Shown here piece after piece: positions 4,021-55,478 of a stretch of 64,000 nt of DNA. The position numbers were made by a program, and so were the translations under genes. The stretch lies in the NCBI RefSeq assembly GCF_051903065.1, contig NZ_CP178438.1. One strand, given 5' to 3'. Each line of letters starts with the position of its first letter. Within the stretch, counting starts at the first letter, position 1. Below the pieces are notes generated by a model that worked only from the letters and a program-made list of their open reading frames with translations, was not told where the DNA came from and did not search any database. The DNA comes from Escherichia coli. GTDB taxonomy: Bacteria; Pseudomonadota; Gammaproteobacteria; Enterobacterales; Enterobacteriaceae.

Positions 4021-5150
4021 GTAACGGCATTGTGATCATCGGTTCGGGCTTCGCCGCCCGCCAACTGGTGAAAAATATTCGCAAACAGGACGCAACTATT
4101 CCATTAACCCTGATTGCCGCCGACAGCATGGATGAGTACAACAAACCTGACCTCAGCCATGTTATCAGTCAGGGGCAACGTGCCGATGACCTTACCCGCC
4201 AGACGGCGGGTGAATTTGCCGAGCAGTTTACTCTGCGCCTGTTTCCGCAAACCTGGGTGACGGATATCGATGCCGAAGCCCATGTGGTGAAAAGCCAGAA
4301 TAATCAGTGGCAATACGACAAGTTAGTGCTGGCAACCGGTGCCAGCGCCTTTGTCCCGCCTGTGCCTGGGCGTGAGTTAATGCTGACGTTAAATAGTCAG
4401 CAAGAGTATCGCGCCTGTGAAACGCAACTGCGGGATGCCCGACGCGTGTTGATTGTTGGCGGTGGTTTGATTGGTAGCGAACTGGCGATGGATTTTTGTC
4501 GTGCAGGCAAAGCGGTCACGCTCATCGACAACGCTGCCAGTATTCTGGCGTCGTTAATGCCACCGGAAGTAAGCAGCCGCTTGCAGCATCGGTTGACGGA
4601 GATGGGCGTTCATCTGCTGTTGAAATCTCAGTTGCAGGGGCTGGAAAAAACGGATTCTGGCATTCTGGCAACGCTGGACCGCCAGCGTAGTATCGAAGTG
4701 GATGCGGTAATTGCCGCCACCGGACTGCGCCCGGAAACCGCCCTGGCACGACGCGCCGGGCTGACGATTAATCGCGGCGTTTGCGTCGATAGTTATCTGC
4801 AAACCAGTAATGCCGATATTTACGCGCTGGGCGATTGCGCGGAAATTAACGGTCAGGTATTGCCGTTCCTCCAGCCGATTCAACTTAGCGCGATGGTGCT
4901 GGCAAAAAATCTTCTCGGCAATAACACGCCGCTGAAACTACCGGCGATGCTGGTGAAAATCAAAACGCCGGAATTACCGCTGCATCTGGCAGGCGAAACC
5001 CAGCGTCAGGATTTACGTTGGCAGATTAATACCGAACGCCAGGGAATGGTGGCGCGCGGCGTTGACGATGCTGACCAGCTTCGCGCCTTTGTGGTAAGTG
5101 AGGATCGGATGAAAGAGGCATTTGGATTGTTGAAAACGTTGCCGGTGTAG
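4017..5150 (+). CDS. norW: NADH:flavorubredoxin reductase NorW
   Basis: 377 aa; ATGA overlap with norV stop; FAD/NAD Rossmann motifs GSGFAA and GGGLIG. Confidence 0.93.
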
Positions 5151-5569: not shown

Positions 5570-7822
5570 TTATCCGTTCTGGACTTCACCCGCTAACCAA
5601 CGCGCCGCAGCAATAACCCCCTGCCCCAGAGACAAACCGCCATCACCCGCCGGTAAACTCTGTGGAAAGAGCAATGTGAAATCAGCGAGATAATGCGCCA
5701 GACGTGCACGCAGCAAACGGTTATGAATAACCCCGCCGCTAAATACCAGCGTAGTGATACCACGCATCGTGGCCTGCTCACGCATCAACGCGGCAAAACC
5801 CTGCGCCAGCGCATCATGAAACGCCCACGCGCGTTGATTAACCGGTGCCTGCCAGTTCAGCCACTGCTGCCAGAAAGTGGCGAGATCCAGTTGATTGTCC
5901 ACCAGCGGCATTGTCACCGGATGCGTCACTCCGTGGCATGAGGCTGCGAGCGCCTCCAGAGCACAAGCCGCTTCACCTTCATAACTTAACGTGGCTGGCG
6001 CACAGCCCAGTGCCGCCGCCACTGCATCGAACACCCGCCCACACGATGACGCCAGCGGCGCGTTAATTCCACGCTCAATGGCCCGCGCCAGTACGCTCCA
6101 GTTTTGCTGTTGCACACTTGCCGTTTCAGGGTAATTCTGCCACTCCGGCACAAAGCGCAGGCACTGCGCCAGCAGGTTACGCCACGGCTGCTTCGCCGCC
6201 AAATCGCCACCCGGAAGCGCCACTGCAGGCAAGCCGCCCAGGTGCTCACATTCGCGATAGTTCACCCGCAGGCACTCGCCGCCCCACAAAGCGCCGTTCT
6301 CCCCCATACCGATACCGTCGAGCGTCAAAGCAATGACATCACCGCCATCCAGCGGCCAGTGATGTTCTGCCAGACACGCCGCTGCATGGGCATGATGATG
6401 CAGTACCGTTTGCGTCGGCAGATTCATTTCGCGCGCCCACTGGCTGGAGACATAGCCAGGATGTGCGTCATGCACAACGTATTGCGGGGTGAAATCGTAG
6501 ATGTTTTGCATCAGGCGTAACGCTTCGCGCCACTGCATCTGGATGCCATCGTCACTTAAATCGCCCAGATGCTGGCTCAACACCGCTTGTTCACCGCGCA
6601 CCAGGCAGAAGGTATTTTTCAGATCCGCGCCGAGACACAGCACAGGCGGAACATTTTTAAAGCCCGGAGGCAAAGACAGCGCGTCCGGTACATACCCTCG
6701 CGAACGGCGCAGCATTTCGCCGCTTTCGCGCACCACTGAATCATCCATCCGCTGCACGATGTCGCGGTTATGTAGCAAGAATCCGTCGGCAATGCCCTGC
6801 AAATCCGCCAGCGCCTGTTCGTTGCTGATAGCCGGTGGTTTACCGCTCAGGTTGCCAGAGGTCATCACCAGCGGGCATTGCAGTTCCTGTAACAGCAAAT
6901 GCTGGAGCGGGTTCGCAGGCAACATTACCCCGACTTCGTTAAGGCCAGGGGCGATATCATCACAAAGCTCAGGAACGTATTTTTTATCCACCAGCACAAT
7001 CGGCGCGGCGGGCGTGGTAAGCAACTGGCGCGCAGCGTCTGGTAAACCGTCAGCCACTGGCAACATGACCGCCAGCGGTTTCGCCGGGCGATGTTTGCGC
7101 GCCCGAAGTGTCGCCACCGCGTTACTGTTACGTGCATCGCAGGCAAGATGAAATCCGCCAATCCCTTTGATGGCGACAATGTTGCCCATTTTTAACTGTG
7201 CGATAGCCGCCTGTAATGCCGCCTCTTGTTCCGCATGTTCACCATGACTTACCCATTCAAGATGTGGGCCACACTCCGGGCAGGCCACCGGCTGGGCGTG
7301 GAAGCGACGATCGAGCGGGTCGCGGTACTCTTTATCACAGGCTGGACACAGAGGAAACGCCGCCATTACGGTAAACGGGCGGTCGTAAGGCATGGCGCGA
7401 ATAATGGTGAAACGCGGGCCGCAGTGGGTACAGTTGATAAACGGATAACGATAACGCCGTTCGCCTGGGGTATTCATTTCGGCAAGGCAAGCAGGGCAAG
7501 TGGCGGCATCGGGAACAATTTGCGTATTCATGGTGCCGCCTGTGCTCTGGCGGATGGTGAACTCGGTGGGCGGCTGTGACCAGATAAACGGCTCACGCTC
7601 GACGCTATCAATACGCGCCAGTGGCGGACAGTGCTGATGCAATTGAACAAGAAACGTTTCCGGGTCTTCCAGCAGCCGGACTTCTACGCCATCGCCGTCA
7701 TTACAGACATCGCCGTGAAGATTTAATTGCTGTGCCAGTTGCCAGACAAACGGACGAAAACCGACGCCCTGCACTTTGCCACGAATACGCAGTTGGACAC
7801 CGCAAGATGTGTTTTTTGCCAT
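5570..7822 (-). CDS. hypF: [NiFe]-hydrogenase maturation carbamoyltransferase HypF
   Basis: ORF 5570..7894; start placed at [25 protein letters not shown] (750 aa); acylphosphatase domain, two zinc-finger CxxC pairs, YrdC and Kae1-like domains. Confidence 0.9.
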
Positions 7823-45341: not shown

Positions 45342-45858
45342 GGGTGTTCTACCGCAGGGGCGGGGAATTCTCAGTGATATCCATCATCGCATCCAGTGCG
45401 CCCGGTTTATCCCCGCTGGCGCGGGGAACACGTGTGGCACTCTGCGTCTGGTATTAAATCATTCGGTTTATCCCCGCTGGCGCGGGGAACACCCGCCACG
45501 CCGTGCGCATCAACAGATATACGCAGGTTTATCCCCGCTGGCGCGGGGAACACAAACCGAAACACACGATCAATCCGAATATGAGCGGTTTATCCCCGCT
45601 GGCGCGGGGAACACCGAAAAGGCACCGTGCCGGTGACGTTCAATTCCGGTTTATCCCCGCTGGCGCGGGGAACACCGTTTTCACTCACTGGCAATCTCCG
45701 AGCAGAGCGGTTTATCCCCGCTGGCGCGGGGAACACGTGCGAATACCGTGTAAAAAATTAGTGTTATTCGGTTTATCCCCGCTGGCGCGGGGAACACTCA
45801 CGGTAGCGCCACTGCGCGTCGGTGACGGGCGGTTTATCCCCGCTGGCGCGGGGAACAC
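45342..45858 (-). CRISPR. Type I-E CRISPR array: 8 canonical 29-bp repeats plus one degenerate terminal repeat, 8 spacers
   Basis: Repeat on + strand CGGTTTATCCCCGCTGGCGCGGGGAACAC at 45403, 45464, 45525 (first base A), 45586, 45647, 45708, 45769, 45830; 61-bp period; degenerate iap-proximal repeat 45342-45370 matches 19/29; spacers 32 bp; leader at the high-coordinate end, so crRNA is read from the minus strand. Confidence 0.97.
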
Positions 45859-49620: not shown

Positions 49621-50160
49621 TTATTGATTTTGTTCGTTATCGGCGTCGCCAGCCTGGTAATATTCCAGCGCCCAGCGGATACGGATAAATTCGGTTGGCC
49701 GCTGCTGGCGGCGGTGATGATTGAGCAGGTCGTCGCTCTCCTGACACCAGCGGAAAATATCGTCTGCCAAAGAGATAAGATTGACGGAACCGTTTAATAA
49801 TTTGACTGCGCGTCGTAACTGGCGCAGTAATTCATCCGGCGTTTTTACTGCCGACAGGCAAGTAAAACGCCCCTCTGACATTACCGCCGCCAGCTGTGCG
49901 GCAAAAGGCTGCCGTTCATCAATGGCTTTAACATTGGCGGCAACGGCGGCGACCAGTGCCAGTGCGGTAAAACGCCACTCTTGTGCTTCAATTTTCCACA
50001 AAGTGTGGGTCTGCATCAGCAGAGAACGAAACCCTTCTGACAAGCAAACATCATTAACCGTTGTGCTACGCCGCAGACTGGCACGATTGCCGCGTTTAGC
50101 CTGCAACTCTTCGTGCCATTTACGCAGCGTGGCTTTGTGCCCGTCTTTTACAATACTCAT
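49621..50160 (-). CDS. casB: Cse2 (CasB) Cascade small subunit
   Basis: 179 aa; position between cse1 and cas7; 4-nt overlap with cse1 stop. Confidence 0.85.
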   Translation of the reverse strand: MSIVKDGHKATLRKWHEELQAKRGNRASLRRSTTVNDVCLSEGFRSLLMQTHTLWKIEAQEWRFTALALVAAVAANVKAIDERQPFAAQLAAVMSEGRFTCLSAVKTPDELLRQLRRAVKLLNGSVNLISLADDIFRWCQESDDLLNHHRRQQRPTEFIRIRWALEYYQAGDADNEQNQ

Positions 50161-51719
50161 TCAGCAGCCTCCTGCTTTTTCTCCCTGGCGGCTTTAGCAC
50201 TTTGCTTCTCCGCCGATGTTGTAAAATATTTTTTGCGCGCGGTCATGACGCGTTTTAAATCAACGGGCTCATAAGGATTGGTGAATACACGCTCGTCAAA
50301 ATCCTGACGCGAGAATAACCAAATCTCCTTATTCCATTTGCTGAGTAATTCATCCGCATCCTGACCTTCTTCAATTTGGCGCACTAACCTCAGGAAGCGA
50401 TGCTGAGTTTTGTTCCAGAAGTCGATATCCACAAAACTGAAATCACCCCGTGCACCTTTTGGATCGGAGAACCATGCTTCTTTCAATGCACTCCGTAACA
50501 GACTTAGAATGCGTGAAGCCGTTTGCGCAGCCAGCCGCAGTTTCGGTATCTGGCCTTCTTTTTTATTGAGCAGCAGCGGGAAACGGTGTTCGTACCAACA
50601 GCGGGCTTTCATGTTGTCGAAATCATAGCCAAATCCCCATAGGCCTACTTTTGCCTGCTTGAGACTGCTGGCATTAAAGAGTTTCACCACCAGAGCGGGA
50701 AGTTCCGTATTGTTTTCTGACTTACCCGTTTCGATAAGGCCTAACCAGTCGCGCCAAATTAAACCGCCTGGTTGTGGTTTAACTGAGTAAAACTCGCCAC
50801 CCTCTTTAAGTGGTACACGGTAAGGCGTTAATGGATGCTGCCACATGGCATAATTCGCACCGTAATTTTTGGTCGTCATCAGGCTCAGAAGCGCGTCGTC
50901 CTGCTCACCGCAAATATCGCAGTTGCCGACTGTCGTGGTATTAAAATCAATACGAATACGCCGCGGCATTCCCCAGTACGCCTGGAGTTTATTGACCTGA
51001 TCATCGGTTACCACCGCACCGGCCAGTTCGCTGGTACGCGTCGGGCCAAGCCAGGGGAAAACCAGATCGTCAAATTTTTTGGGTAGCGGTAAGTCGGCTT
51101 CATCCTGCGGCATCACGTTGAGCCACAGTTTGCGCCACAAGGGGGCTTGTTGATTGCCCTGATACTCCTGCAATTCAATCAGAGTCGTCATCGGCCCACC
51201 GCCGCGTAAACCGGTTCGGTAGCCTTTGCCGCCTGACGGTGCATTTAACTGTAGGGAGAACAGAGCTAACGCGGAACAATGAGGGCATACGTGTTCAGTC
51301 ACGCCACGCTTAATAAAGTGGTCTTTATTAAACTTCGTTGTTTGAGCGCCGGGAATCTCAGGCAGTAATGAAGCAACCTGAACTTTATCTCCCGTGAGCG
51401 CCTCGAAATCCTGCATAAATGAAGGGGAATCTGGCCCAAACTGGAAAGCATGTTCTAAAGACAGCAATGCTTCCCGTAGCTTTTCGGCTTCCAGTCCGTC
51501 TTGCCAGATATCATCCCAACGACCATGATTTTTGGGCGCGAAACTGGTTTGTAGTAGCCCCAGTAAAAACTGCCATGCTGCTCCCTGGAGATCTGCTCGT
51601 GGCGCAGCGATATCGACAACATTTTCATCAGCCAGATCGACTGGCGCCAGTTTGCCTGTCGTTCCGTCTTTAAAACGAACGGGCAACCACGGGGTTGTCA
51701 GAAGTGAAAACGAGTTCAT
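50157..51719 (-). CDS. casA: Cse1 (CasA) Cascade large subunit
   Basis: ORF 50157..51725; start preferred at MNSFSLLTTPWLPV (ATG 51719, 6-nt spacing from GAGAGG); 520 aa. Confidence 0.88.
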   Translation of the reverse strand: MNSFSLLTTPWLPVRFKDGTTGKLAPVDLADENVVDIAAPRADLQGAAWQFLLGLLQTSFAPKNHGRWDDIWQDGLEAEKLREALLSLEHAFQFGPDSPSFMQDFEALTGDKVQVASLLPEIPGAQTTKFNKDHFIKRGVTEHVCPHCSALALFSLQLNAPSGGKGYRTGLRGGGPMTTLIELQEYQGNQQAPLWRKLWLNVMPQDEADLPLPKKFDDLVFPWLGPTRTSELAGAVVTDDQVNKLQAYWGMPRRIRIDFNTTTVGNCDICGEQDDALLSLMTTKNYGANYAMWQHPLTPYRVPLKEGGEFYSVKPQPGGLIWRDWLGLIETGKSENNTELPALVVKLFNASSLKQAKVGLWGFGYDFDNMKARCWYEHRFPLLLNKKEGQIPKLRLAAQTASRILSLLRSALKEAWFSDPKGARGDFSFVDIDFWNKTQHRFLRLVRQIEEGQDADELLSKWNKEIWLFSRQDFDERVFTNPYEPVDLKRVMTARKKYFTTSAEKQSAKAAREKKQEAAE

Positions 51720-52115
51720 ACGCATCCTCTCGTAGAAAAGACCATCCCTGGTCGGTTGTCCATCACCATATTTTCAGATTTAGTTGGAGACTTAATCTGA
51801 GTCGGATAAAAGAAAAGACGTTGAATGTGATACGAAAATCGAACTTAGTTTGTCGTTTTGAAAGCAGACTTAGCACAAGTTGAAGCAAAAAAATCGACAA
51901 CATCGTAGTCCTCTTCACCGCAGCTTTTCACCGGTCACGAAAATACGCCTTGTAACGGTGTGACTCAACTCCGGATCCGGACATTATTTAAAATCTTTGT
52001 TTCTCATTAACTCATAGCAATTACCCATCTATCATAATCACAATAGCATTGATAAAATAAATCCATTCCCTGATTCTAGGGATTAACCAAGTTAGTGAGA
52101 TACAAAAATTGGTTC

Positions 52116-52144
52116 CTGTTCCCCGCGTCAGCGGGGATAAGCCC
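52116..52144 (+). repeat. Solitary CRISPR-repeat-like element in the cas3-cse1 intergenic region
   Basis: + strand CTGTTCCCCGCGTCAGCGGGGATAAGCCC matches the crRNA-sense repeat GTGTTCCCCGCGCCAGCGGGGATAAACCG at 25/29 with the stem intact; orientation is opposite to the array; followed by a perfect 10-bp hairpin at 52142-52165 that abuts the cas3 stop. Confidence 0.8.
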
Positions 52145-52169
52145 TGGCGTCATCCGACGCCAGGGCATC

Positions 52170-54869
52170 TCAATCAACCTTGCCAATCAATCCTTCCGTA
52201 GCCGAATACCCGCAGCTTTCGTCATCGGTGACTAAAATCACGTTTGCCATCTCCGGATCTTGCCGTTGTTCAATGCACCACTGCCTGAACGCTTCCCCTT
52301 CCAGTAAAGAAAATTCATCCCGATGTTTTTTCCACCAGCTTCGACGCACTCTGGCAACGCTCATTTCCCATGCGTGAGCACCGCTGGCATAAGGCTTCAC
52401 CACACCGTCAATACAGGTAGCCAGCCACAGGGAAACAGACTCTTCAGCCAGACGTGTCGACAGCTTTTCCGGGAGGTAATCGTTGATATTGGCGGCATAG
52501 CCGGGCCTGAAGTTCAGCATAAACTTTTTAGCCATTGCGCGATCGCAGTAATATTTGCCCACTTGCTCCTGCTCGCTGCGGGCAAATCCTTCCGGCATTA
52601 CCACGTCCTCACCGTAGACGGATTCAATAAGAAGCCGGGCTGCGTGTGGCATCTGAATAGCGCCTTGCTCACGCAATACTCGCTGCGTCAGCCAGATTCG
52701 CCCATGATCGGGGTAGACATATGCGCTGTTACGCATCGCACTACCAAACCATTCGTCACCCGGAGAGTCGTCCCAGACGGGGGCCAGAATCAGCAATTCA
52801 GGAGGGGAACGCTCGTCTTTTCCATCACGTTTTAACTGACCATTAATATCACGAATATGCCGTTGTAATCGCCCCGCTCGCTGGATCAGCAAATCAATGG
52901 GGGCCAGGTCGGAGATCATTTCGTCCAGGTCAATATCCACACTTTGCTCAATTACTTGTGTACAAACAATGACTTGAGATGATCTTTTTAAACTACAATT
53001 TTTACCAAAGCGTGCCAGCGTTTCCGTTTCAATTCGCTGGCGATCGCTAAAAGCAAAGCGGCTATGAAAAAGTGAAAGGCTGGAAGCAGGAATGACGCCG
53101 CGGGCAAGTAACTGACGATAAACCTTAATAGCGTCATCGACAGAATTCCGGATCCAGGCGATGCATTTCCCCTGACTTACCGCTGATTCGATACGCGCAA
53201 TACATTCTTGTTCGCTATGAAGCCAACCCACGCTCACGCTACGCTCAACGTCTTTGCGCGTCGCTACCCGGTGCGAATGCACATCGGATTTCGTGACATG
53301 CGTCAGCCAGGGGTAATCATCCTTTTCTAGGAACGGAGCTTCTTGCTGGCCCTCTGTGCCACGCGCAAAGGCGGCGACAAGTTTGTCGCGCTGCTGTTGA
53401 GATAACGTAGCAGAAAGCAAAATGACGCTGTTTCCGCCACGCACCTGTCGCTCAATCAACCCTTCAAGAATGTACGACATGTAAGCGTCACAGGCGTGGA
53501 TCTCATCAGCCAGCAGGATTTTGTTACTCAACCCCAGAAGCCGCAGATTATTATGTTTAAACGGCATCACTGCCATCATCGCCTGATCCAGCGTGCCGAC
53601 GCCAATTTCAGCCAGTAAAGCCTTCTTGTTACTGTCGGCAAACCAGGCTGCACATCCTTGACTGAACGCTTGTTCATCCGGTTCTTCTGACCCGACTAAA
53701 TCACCGGACCAGAGTGATTCATTAAAGCGTTCCATTAATGTACGGGCGCTGTGTGCCAGCACCAGGCTGGGGCGGGATTCTGGCGAAAAGAAAGCAAGCC
53801 AGGTTTTGACCAGCCGATCGTACATGGCATTGGCCGTTGCCATTGTTGGCAGGCCAAAAAACAAACCCTGAGCTTTATTCTCAGCCATCAACCTGTGCGC
53901 CAGGATAAGCGCCGCTTCTGTTTTACCTGCGCCAGTCACATCTTCCAGAATAAATAACTGTGGCCCTGGCTGGCTGATATCCAGATCCAGTACCTTTTGC
54001 TGTAATGGTGTCGGGTGCTCAATAAAAGGAAACAGCGTATTAATTCCGGTGAAAGGTGCGGTTTCTGCTTTTGGAGGAAAGACGGTTAAGGCGTTTTGAG
54101 CCTGAACTAAAGTTTTCTGCCAGTAATCTTTAATATTCATTGTCTGTGCGACGCGTGGAAAAAATCGCGTTGACGAACCCGTCCAGTCTGCGAGTACGAC
54201 TGTTGCAGAGATATACCAGGAAAGTTGTTTTAAAAGTTCAACGCCCTCGTCATCATCCCAGAATGTGGGAATCTCTATGAGCGGAAACAGTGACTTGATT
54301 TCAAGGAGAAAATCTCGTGCGGCAGCTTTGTCTTCAGGCAGGAAATTATCCAGTTCATCAATACGGTCAGGGGGCCGACCATGATGCCCGGTAGTCATGG
54401 GCATCCACATCGCTATTACACGTTTAAGTTTGCGAGTAGAGAGTGAAGAGGCAGGAAGCAATTCTTCGCATTCACTTAAATAATGATGCCACAACCAGTA
54501 GCCCAGCGTTGAATGAGAGATCTTTTCGTAATTCTTTCTTGCGCCTTCCGGAACCTTGAGTTGTGGGTGCAGGTAAAGTTGCTGAAATGAGCGGGCAAAT
54601 TTTCCAATATCGTGCCAGCACAACAACCAGGCGAAAAATTGAGCCGCCTGTTCCTTGTCAGAAATCCCTAATTGACGAAAATAATCAGCCAGCCCGAAGC
54701 AATTTCTTTTAACCATTAAATAGCCCATCGCGGCCACATCCAGCGAATGCCAGCAAAGAAGGTGATAGTCGTCACCCCCTTCTTTCTCGTCGCGTCGGGT
54801 TTTTCCCCAGAAATCAAAGAAAGTCACAATATTTTTATCCTTCAGTAAACTTAAAGGATATTTACGCAT
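52170..54869 (-). CDS. cas3: Cas3 HD nuclease / SF2 helicase (type I-E)
   Basis: 899 aa; N-terminal HD motifs (LLCWHSLDV, WHDIGKF), helicase Walker A GAGKTEAAL and DEIHA box; highly AT-rich upstream region. Confidence 0.92.
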   Translation of the reverse strand: MRKYPLSLLKDKNIVTFFDFWGKTRRDEKEGGDDYHLLCWHSLDVAAMGYLMVKRNCFGLADYFRQLGISDKEQAAQFFAWLLCWHDIGKFARSFQQLYLHPQLKVPEGARKNYEKISHSTLGYWLWHHYLSECEELLPASSLSTRKLKRVIAMWMPMTTGHHGRPPDRIDELDNFLPEDKAAARDFLLEIKSLFPLIEIPTFWDDDEGVELLKQLSWYISATVVLADWTGSSTRFFPRVAQTMNIKDYWQKTLVQAQNALTVFPPKAETAPFTGINTLFPFIEHPTPLQQKVLDLDISQPGPQLFILEDVTGAGKTEAALILAHRLMAENKAQGLFFGLPTMATANAMYDRLVKTWLAFFSPESRPSLVLAHSARTLMERFNESLWSGDLVGSEEPDEQAFSQGCAAWFADSNKKALLAEIGVGTLDQAMMAVMPFKHNNLRLLGLSNKILLADEIHACDAYMSYILEGLIERQVRGGNSVILLSATLSQQQRDKLVAAFARGTEGQQEAPFLEKDDYPWLTHVTKSDVHSHRVATRKDVERSVSVGWLHSEQECIARIESAVSQGKCIAWIRNSVDDAIKVYRQLLARGVIPASSLSLFHSRFAFSDRQRIETETLARFGKNCSLKRSSQVIVCTQVIEQSVDIDLDEMISDLAPIDLLIQRAGRLQRHIRDINGQLKRDGKDERSPPELLILAPVWDDSPGDEWFGSAMRNSAYVYPDHGRIWLTQRVLREQGAIQMPHAARLLIESVYGEDVVMPEGFARSEQEQVGKYYCDRAMAKKFMLNFRPGYAANINDYLPEKLSTRLAEESVSLWLATCIDGVVKPYASGAHAWEMSVARVRRSWWKKHRDEFSLLEGEAFRQWCIEQRQDPEMANVILVTDDESCGYSATEGLIGKVD

Positions 54870-55061: not shown

Positions 55062-55214
55062 CTACTTCTTCGATTCGTAAGCGAGAACAGCCTTAAACTC
55101 CATACCACGTTCTCTGATACTCAACTCACACAACGAGTCACCTACCATCAGCGTGAATCCCAGTACTGTACAACACAGTACGATGATTGCCACAAGGGCA
55201 TATTTTGTCAGCAT
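55062..55214 (-). CDS. Hok/Gef-family type I toxin (50 aa), HokE-like
   Basis: Not in ORF track (too short). ATG 55214 after GGGAGG; translation [50 protein letters not shown] with the Hok signature SLCE..R.G.E..A.LAYES.K; stem-loop GCGGGGGTAAAACCCCGC just downstream (55036-55055). Confidence 0.7.
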
Positions 55215-55478
55215 GTCTTGCCTCCCTGCAAAGAAGAGACTAACATTCGAATTGCTTAGGTTCGAACGCTGGCCTCAGGTTGATAGAAATATCGCCTGGG
55301 GCTTTTGTCCATCTGGAACCTCGCGAATGCTTAACGCCAGACAGCCTCAAGCACCCAACACCATTCTATACCTGTTAATTCTTCCAGCGGCGTTCACGTT
55401 TAAAATCAGGAATGCTGCTCGCAAAATAAAAACGCCCCCATCATTTCTGACAGAGGCGTTTAATTTATCCGGCAATAT

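Follow-up and report, generated by a model that had tools for sequence, protein, structure and literature searches.

What is the repeat-like hairpin that lies between cas3 and casA in a type I-E CRISPR-Cas locus of Escherichia coli, on the strand opposite to that of the cas genes, and does it have a function? We examined it in a window of 64,000 nucleotides, by which we mean the whole stretch of DNA that was analyzed. [quoted passage not shown] The observation holds up and is of biological significance; a sequence-only reading of the same DNA saw only the distal repeat of the creR mini-array.

The cas locus and its canonical CRISPR array

The source of the window is E. coli, and its cas3–casA IGR is 100% identical to that of strain 23CRST027. 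The genes follow the order iap, CRISPR array, cas2-cas1-cas6e-cas5e-cas7e-casB-casA, a 444-nt IGR, cas3, hok/sok and cysH. The cas genes are all intact and represent a non-K-12 variant of type I-E.

45403–45858, minus strand: canonical CRISPR array with eight repeats
50157–51725, minus strand: casA (cse1)
52170–54869, minus strand: cas3, convergent with creR, with its stop codon at 52170–52172

In the crRNA sense, which is read from the minus strand, the array repeat is GTGTTCCCCGCGCCAGCGGGGATAAACCG. A degenerate ninth repeat with 10 mismatches lies at the iap-proximal end of the array (45342–45370, minus strand) and is the usual decayed terminal repeat. The hok/sok type I toxin-antitoxin system between cas3 and cysH (55199–55356, minus strand; Rfam sok, 111.7 bits; Hok/Gef coding sequence nearby) is present in all examined non-K-12 E. 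coli loci that retain cas3. In E. coli O157:H7 strain 1130, cas3 is a 75-nt pseudogene remnant adjoining cysH (4092–4166 of locus L005), casA–cas2 are kept, and the cas3–casA spacer is short and carries no mini-array.

Two degenerate repeats enclose a spacer-like guide

Alignment to the array repeat reproduced the 25/29 match with a preserved stem that had been noticed at 52116–52144. The crRNA sense of this element is on the plus strand, opposite to the array and the cas genes, as had been claimed, since the array sense reads on the minus strand. The mismatches fall at repeat positions 1, 13 (in the loop), 26 and 29, and the stem is therefore intact. No other non-array sequence in the 64 kb lies within four mismatches of the repeat, and 30 shuffled windows contained none. 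The element had been called solitary. A second degenerate repeat, psiR1, is nevertheless found 26 nt upstream, which makes psiR2 the distal repeat of a two-repeat mini-array with the following anatomy.

52063–52089, plus strand: psiR1, degenerate proximal repeat, ccaTTCCCTGATTCTAGGGATTAACCA, read from the sequence
52067–52082, plus strand: psiR1 hairpin with a 6-bp stem, present in the MFE and centroid folds
52082–52089, plus strand: 8-nt 5′ handle of psiR1, ATTAACCA, versus the canonical ATAAACCG
52090–52115, plus strand: psiS, spacer-like guide of 26 nt (32 minus 6), AGTTAGTGAGATACAAAAATTGGTTC
52116–52144, plus strand: psiR2, distal repeat, CTGTTCCCCGCGTCAGCGGGGATAAGCCC
52120–52126/52131–52137, plus strand: 7-bp stem of psiR2, from the sequence and the predicted fold
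52141–52166, strand-neutral: hairpin 2, an 11-bp GC-rich stem with an ATCC loop, GCCCTGGCGTC-ATCC-GACGCCAGGGC

The stem of psiR1 is degenerate, and its handle agrees with the canonical one at six of eight positions and deviates at two; the AACC within it is invariant across the loci compared below. In the predicted fold, the handle and the start of psiS (AACCAA, 52084–52089, plus strand) pair with the psiS 3′ end (UUGGUU, 52109–52114), a pairing that may be incidental or may affect the accessibility of the guide before loading.

The second hairpin had been described as a perfect 10-bp structure abutting the cas3 stop codon. The hairpin itself stands, its stem having 11 bp rather than 10 and its end lying 3 nt before the stop codon. 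The MFE fold of the plus-strand RNA contains both the psiR2 hairpin and hairpin 2 (z = −6.3).

We rejected the identification of the mini-array as a canonical CRISPR array: the two repeats are degenerate and unlike each other, and the guide matches its own IGR. No K-12-type leader was seen beside it. A search of the mini-array with Rfam covariance models gave no relevant match at the gathering threshold, nor at E ≤ 10. The layout corresponds to that of type I-E creR, in which two repeats enclose one spacer-like sequence within a cas locus, psiR1 keeps the 5′ handle and psiR2 keeps the Cas6e hairpin, the psiR2 stem here being identical to that of the repeat. The long IGR (444 nt) and the orientation opposite to cas3 are likewise those of type I-E creR.

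The guide pairs with a PAM-flanked site upstream of casA

The guide has a partial match within its own IGR, and candidate promoters lie under this match and upstream of psiR1.

51987–52015, minus strand: psiS target, consisting of an ATG PAM (52015–52013) and a protospacer (52012→51987), from sequence pairing
51983–52010, minus strand: candidate casA promoter under the target, TTAATG-16-AATAAT, a weak σ70-like consensus match with a predicted start at about 51976
52050–52058, plus strand: candidate creR promoter with an extended −10 element, TGATAAAAT, conserved in position, with a predicted start at about 52065

E. coli type I-E accepts ATG as a functional PAM. The guide pairs with the target at positions 1–5, 7–11, 13–17 and 19–21 (18 of 21), leaving positions 6, 12, 18 and 22–26 unpaired. 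The first 21 positions thus contain mismatches only at 6, 12 and 18, where Cascade flips the base out of the duplex. All 15 scored positions of psiS are matched; of 2000 shuffled spacers, none had an equally good PAM-flanked site in the IGR. The target is located 263–287 nt upstream of casA, so that the window shares with type I-E creR a seed-proximal partial complementarity of psiS to a site with a cognate PAM upstream of casA.

The window, BEC1 and N3 alleles all retain a −10-like hexamer (nACAAT/AATAAT) at the PAM-distal protospacer edge. Scans for consensus promoters gave weak matches over the target that did not agree between loci, and the assignment of the casA promoter is therefore tentative. 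On the other strand, the extended −10 motif TGnTAnnnT occurs 28–34 nt upstream of psiS in 10 of 13 loci, with a chance expectation of 0.055 per locus, as calculated from the TGnTAnnnT density in these IGRs, and N3 carries TGATATAAA at the same place. The predicted creR start falls at the 5′ edge of the psiR1 hairpin. This conserved motif is the strongest in-sequence argument for a rightward transcript, which remains a prediction.

The mini-array is conserved and co-varies across Enterobacterales

We compared the cas3–casA spacers of five E. coli loci (window, N3, TUM14771, BEC1 and K-12) with those of S. enterica, C. rodentium, K. aerogenes, K. spallanzanii, Raoultella ornithinolytica, Atlantibacter, Cronobacter sakazakii and a Pantoea. 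The psiR1-psiS-psiR2 layout abuts the 3′ end of cas3 in all 13 of these divergent loci, though the IGRs are largely unalignable, and each locus has a TTCCCT...AGGGAT(A/T/C)AACC(A/G) element homologous to psiR1. Conservation in related genomes, which had been proposed as a check, is therefore borne out for the layout and, beyond shuffled-spacer chance, for the self-target in 12 of the 13 loci. In these 12 the target has an AAG or ATG PAM, is located in the same IGR 214–315 nt upstream of casA, and pairs at 13–15 of the 15 scored seed-proximal positions, a score that none of the 1000–2000 shuffled spacers reached in any of them. The best Cronobacter target matches at 13 of 15 positions next to a non-canonical ATC PAM, and 3 of 1000 shuffles reach it.

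Guide and target vary together. In the BEC1 allele, which is 96% identical to that of the window, position 15 of psiS is changed from A to T and the target is changed likewise. Salmonella and the window have guide positions 1–7 in common; positions 8–19 differ in both guide and target, each guide fitting its own target. The guide is 26 nt long in the window and in the Salmonella homologue and 32 nt in E. coli N3. A strict rule by which psiS length equals 32 minus a multiple of six holds for the window and Salmonella but is not cleanly followed in Atlantibacter, Pantoea and Cronobacter, whose repeat boundaries are fuzzy, and is for this reason not claimed.

A structure alignment of psiR2 and hairpin 2 from eight sequences showed that 92% of the alignment cells pair, compared to 33–58% when the partners are slid by one to three columns. 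Both partners have changed in five pairs, of which one belongs to psiR2 and four to hairpin 2, and the covariation score exceeds those of all 500 shuffles. The psiR2 stem is 98% paired across the eight sequences and displays a compensatory C-G to U-A change in BEC1 and Atlantibacter. Three U-G pairs, in psiR2 of K. aerogenes and C. rodentium and in hairpin 2 of Atlantibacter, are valid only in the plus-strand RNA. Furthermore, the order of handle, seed and PAM is meaningful on the plus strand only. Together with the extended −10 element, these properties uphold the earlier suggestion that the plus strand is the meaningful sense and that a rightward RNA would carry a Cas6e-type hairpin. In anatomy, PAM/seed pairing, conservation and covariation alike, the window element displays every sequence-level feature of the creR, or crRNA-like mini-array, family.

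A proposed model for CreR-Cascade autoregulation

Transcription, processing, Cascade loading and repression are what we infer for this strain, and we propose the following model. A short plus-strand RNA would start at about 52065 from the extended −10 promoter. Cas6e cuts type I-E repeats at the 3′ base of the stem. By this rule it would bind the psiR2 hairpin and cut after G52136, and the psiR1 side would give the 8-nt handle AUUAACCA. Cleavage after G52081 and G52136 would thus leave a CreR of 55 nt.

52082–52136, plus strand: predicted mature CreR of 55 nt (8-nt handle, 26-nt psiS and 21-nt 3′ hairpin), from the cleavage position of type I-E Cas6e

This crRNA-like RNA of about 55 nt would be loaded into Cascade and direct it to 51987–52015, an ATG-flanked site at which 18 bases would be paired, the flipped-out positions 6, 12 and 18 unpaired and the PAM-distal end mismatched. 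The PAM-distal mismatch should block formation of the complete R-loop that licenses Cas3 recruitment. With the R-loop incomplete, Cascade would repress the casA promoter rather than promote self-cleavage. A functional role for a 26-nt guide in this setting is a prediction. The result would be negative autoregulation, relieved when canonical crRNAs or anti-CRISPRs titrate Cascade, as with the Salmonella homologue; the canonical array at 45403–45858 would be the source of the crRNAs that compete with CreR.

Hairpin 2 would be an accessory structured 3′ module of creR that probably terminates the convergent creR and cas3 transcripts or insulates them from each other.

Small open reading frames and a hairpin in the casA leader

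The casA leader downstream of the CreR target contains a small open reading frame (ORF).

51763–51918, minus strand: ORF of 51 codons with a GTG start, in the casA leader downstream of the CreR target

A 46-codon version of this ORF starts from an ATG at 51903 preceded by a GAAGAGGA Shine-Dalgarno sequence and has a hydrophobic N-terminus, MLSIFLLQLVLSLLS. The BEC1 allele carries an identical ORF; across window-type loci the ORF is not conserved, and a comparison of its 51-codon form to NCBIfam gave no match. A different, 32-codon ORF, which is MEEKSNRCKRLFCRLMIRLGNKLSVSFQLSVR-like and has a Shine-Dalgarno-like sequence, is found at 5644–5742 (minus strand) of locus L003, with equivalents in L042, L043, L025, L047 and L024. 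It is absent from the window. In six genera it lies between the CreR target and casA and ends about 50 nt upstream of casA. Its differences distribute over the three codon positions as 172/93/259, which is coding-like. A search of 1.84 billion representative proteins gave just five matches to it (E ≤ 0.001), and it belongs to no NCBIfam family. A leader peptide and a CreT-like partner are both possible roles.

These ORFs bring up the possibility that the CreR-controlled promoter drives more than casA, its first product being a small ORF that is part of a CreTA-like peptide-toxin module or of a leader-peptide control of Cascade; we consider this unlikely. Its toxin form, in which creR is the antitoxin half of an addiction module, CreR-Cascade represses a small toxic ORF or RNA in the casA leader, and loss of Cascade kills or arrests the cell, is quite unlikely. 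The position of the window ORF downstream of the target, its Shine-Dalgarno sequence and hydrophobic N-terminus, and the coding-like substitution pattern of the 32-codon ORF conserved in the same position of sister loci are all consistent with such a module, and CRISPR-repressed protein toxins are known (10.1101/2024.01.05.574328). However, a search of 5.8 billion clustered proteins gave no homologue of the window ORF, its reading frame could not be aligned with that of the 32-codon ORF, N3 and Salmonella locus L040 have no comparable ORF, and no toxin partner of the Salmonella I-E creR was seen by Liu et al. (10.1101/2023.03.10.532045). If the small-ORF reading were true, hairpin 2 would be a dedicated, conserved 3′ module of the antitoxin RNA.

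Closer to casA, 15–30 nt upstream of its start codon, the minus strand carries a small hairpin, GACCAGGGATGGTC, followed by UUUUCU (51740–51753). All variants examined have this hairpin, even the 97-nt short spacer of strain M8. Whereas its AGGGAUGG core is conserved, its stem is variable (gcgccagggatggcgc in Klebsiella). The hairpin may represent a 5′-UTR structure or an attenuator.

The hairpins and the 3′ end of cas3

It is highly improbable that psiR2 and hairpin 2 function exclusively on the cas3 mRNA strand, whether as terminator or 3′ stabilizer, and that their likeness to the repeat is incidental. In every locus that has hairpin 2, it lies 3–4 nt after the cas3 stop codon, and the minus-strand RNA folds equally well (z = −6.0), as would be expected of such a role. 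Against it, no U-tract follows the hairpins on either strand, the tails being AUCUCAAU (plus) and UUAUCCCC (minus), and a terminator scan called neither the psiR2 hairpin nor hairpin 2 on either strand. Furthermore, the three plus-strand U-G pairs described above would become A-C mismatches in RNA of the cas3 sense, and the mini-array is kept without hairpin 2 in K-12, Raoultella and Pantoea. An action on the cas3 strand also leaves psiR1, its handle and the PAM/seed match unexplained. The two hairpins may possibly serve the 3′ end of cas3 in addition to creR. Hairpin 2 was also considered as a canonical intrinsic (Rho-independent) terminator, a candidate that was rejected because there is no U-tract.

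Distribution of the mini-array

The window type of psiR2 with hairpin 2 is rare, being found in 16 of 5426 complete E. coli genomes; the K-12-type mini-array is found in 1123 of them. The commonest non-K-12 E. coli loci have a 97-nt cas3–casA spacer without a mini-array, and many Salmonella and C. freundii have one of 11 nt. Most E. coli and many Salmonella and Citrobacter freundii of the same cas type thus have a spacer of 11 to 97 nt without a mini-array, and the mini-array is therefore dispensable. Its patchy presence was remarked upon by Shmakov et al. 2023 (PMC10120712).

When 100,044 genomes were scanned for exact matches to a pattern of the psiR2 core, most of the matches were C-to-T variant repeats within ordinary arrays; the few informative matches were in K. 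spallanzanii, Pantoea and Atlantibacter. In a search for phage mimics of the window guide, BLAST against 50,697 phage records matched arrays only, and a degenerate handle-plus-seed pattern matched only coding sequences, by chance, in IMG/VR. Elsewhere, E. coli E69 (L014, 1100–1260) and E. whittamii (L017) carry a K-12-type leader followed by a single or terminal repeat with the GTCAGC loop variant of psiR2. The array end of E69 is a degenerate repeat-spacer-repeat, attccttgtaaaaacagggataaaccg – 32 nt – GTTCCCCGCGTCAGCGGGGATAAACC, and is a candidate for an ordinary decayed terminal repeat.

Degenerate repeats, absence from most E. coli of the same cas type and from many Salmonella and C. freundii, and a mosaic of IGR variants of which the window variant is a rare one are what a non-functional relic would also display, be it a decaying fragment of an ancestral inverted array or the scar of a cas-cassette recombination that the sequence-only reading had entertained, but we hold a relic without a present role to be very improbable: such a relic would not retain its PAM-flanked self-target in 12 of the 13 divergent loci, confine mismatches to flipped-out positions, keep guide and target co-varying, or show compensatory stem changes and a positionally fixed extended −10 element, and the architecture, the spacer-target pairing and both stems, the latter by compensatory change, are maintained across genera.

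Comparison with known systems

CreR-type mini-arrays let a CRISPR system sense its own load, in that Cascade represses its own operon until crRNAs or anti-CRISPRs soak it up. The earlier reading treated the element as possibly undescribed; the E. coli I-E mini-array is nevertheless in PMC10120712 and the Salmonella I-E creR in 10.1101/2023.03.10.532045. Since both the principle and its I-E examples from E. coli and Salmonella have already been published, the window adds no new kind of element. The 13-locus comparative series, which shows guide-target co-evolution and mismatches at flipped-out positions, is modestly useful. The conserved extended −10 element and the conserved 3′ hairpin seem not to have been discussed as parts of the enterobacterial creR unit, and we did not find the leader ORFs discussed in the papers cited here either. 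The E. coli locus exists in three states (K-12-type creR, rare Salmonella-type creR and no creR), a set that could test the benefit of autoregulation to the cell.

Shmakov et al. 2023 (PMC10120712) found repeat-like sequences in excess beside cas3 in I-E loci and mini-arrays in long cas3–cas8 spacers that are transcribed opposite to cas3. Their prediction for the E. coli I-E mini-array between cas3 and cas8e has an AAG-flanked partial target overlapping an H-NS site by Pcas, with mismatches in sixth position. Liu et al. 2023 (bioRxiv 10.1101/2023.03.10.532045) introduced the name creR and showed that S. enterica I-E CreR, together with E. coli Cascade, represses PcasA about 8.6-fold, that a seed mutation abolishes this repression, and that over-expression of a CRISPR array or crRNA relieves it. 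Subsequent work described different CreR alleles in the I-E loci of Salmonella, along with a phage mimic that has a 24-nt psiS and is processed in a Cas-dependent manner (10.1101/2024.10.29.618823).

Salmonella I-E CreR is like the window element in its cas type, its cas3–casA position, the 5′ handle of psiR1, the 3′ hairpin of psiR2 and the partial match of psiS to a PAM-flanked site upstream of casA. The S. enterica locus L040 has a 26-nt psiS whose first 7 nt are common with those of the window, and the same hairpin 2. The two differ in guide and target beyond position 7 and in the PAM, which is ATG in the window and AAG in Salmonella. Compared by description, the target lies about 265 nt from casA in the window and about 140 nt from it in S. 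enterica ATCC 51960.

The K-12 mini-array shares with that of the window the species, the intergenic position and the orientation opposite to cas3. Its target, AAG-flanked and partial, is in the Pcas region and has a mismatch at position 6. K-12 differs from the window in its cas variant, in an unrelated IGR sequence, in having the target on the other strand and in a 32-nt psiS. Its psiR1 is the better-preserved repeat, whereas its psiR2 is badly degraded and overlaps the cas3 stop codon; hairpin 2 is absent. The K-12 anti-Pcas promoter gives an RNA of 150–200 nt that runs into the 3′ end of cas3 (PMC7074321, PMC10011333), and we checked in the sequence that the region of this RNA contains the K-12 mini-array. 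The K-12 mini-array transcript is probably the anti-Pcas transcript of Pul et al. 2010, an account of which is given in PMC7074321. As support for creR transcription in the window, this is only an analogy.

Other systems are related more distantly. CreA of the CreTA module (Haloarcula hispanica I-B), as it is cited in 10.1101/2023.03.10.532045, is likewise a degenerate mini-CRISPR with partial complementarity that uses Cascade as a repressor. By that account it mainly silences an adjacent toxin RNA gene, whereas no convincing toxin partner was found in the window. The tracr-L and scaRNA of type II, as outlined in PMC10120712, are also repeat-derived RNAs that reprogram an effector to repress through a short, imperfect match; they differ in the effector, which is Cas9, in RNA architecture and in processing. 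Finally, phage Cracr and Racr RNAs resemble the window element in being repeat-like hairpins and mini-arrays that load into Cas proteins. They are borne by phages or plasmids and directed against the host, whereas the window element is chromosomal and resides inside the cas locus.
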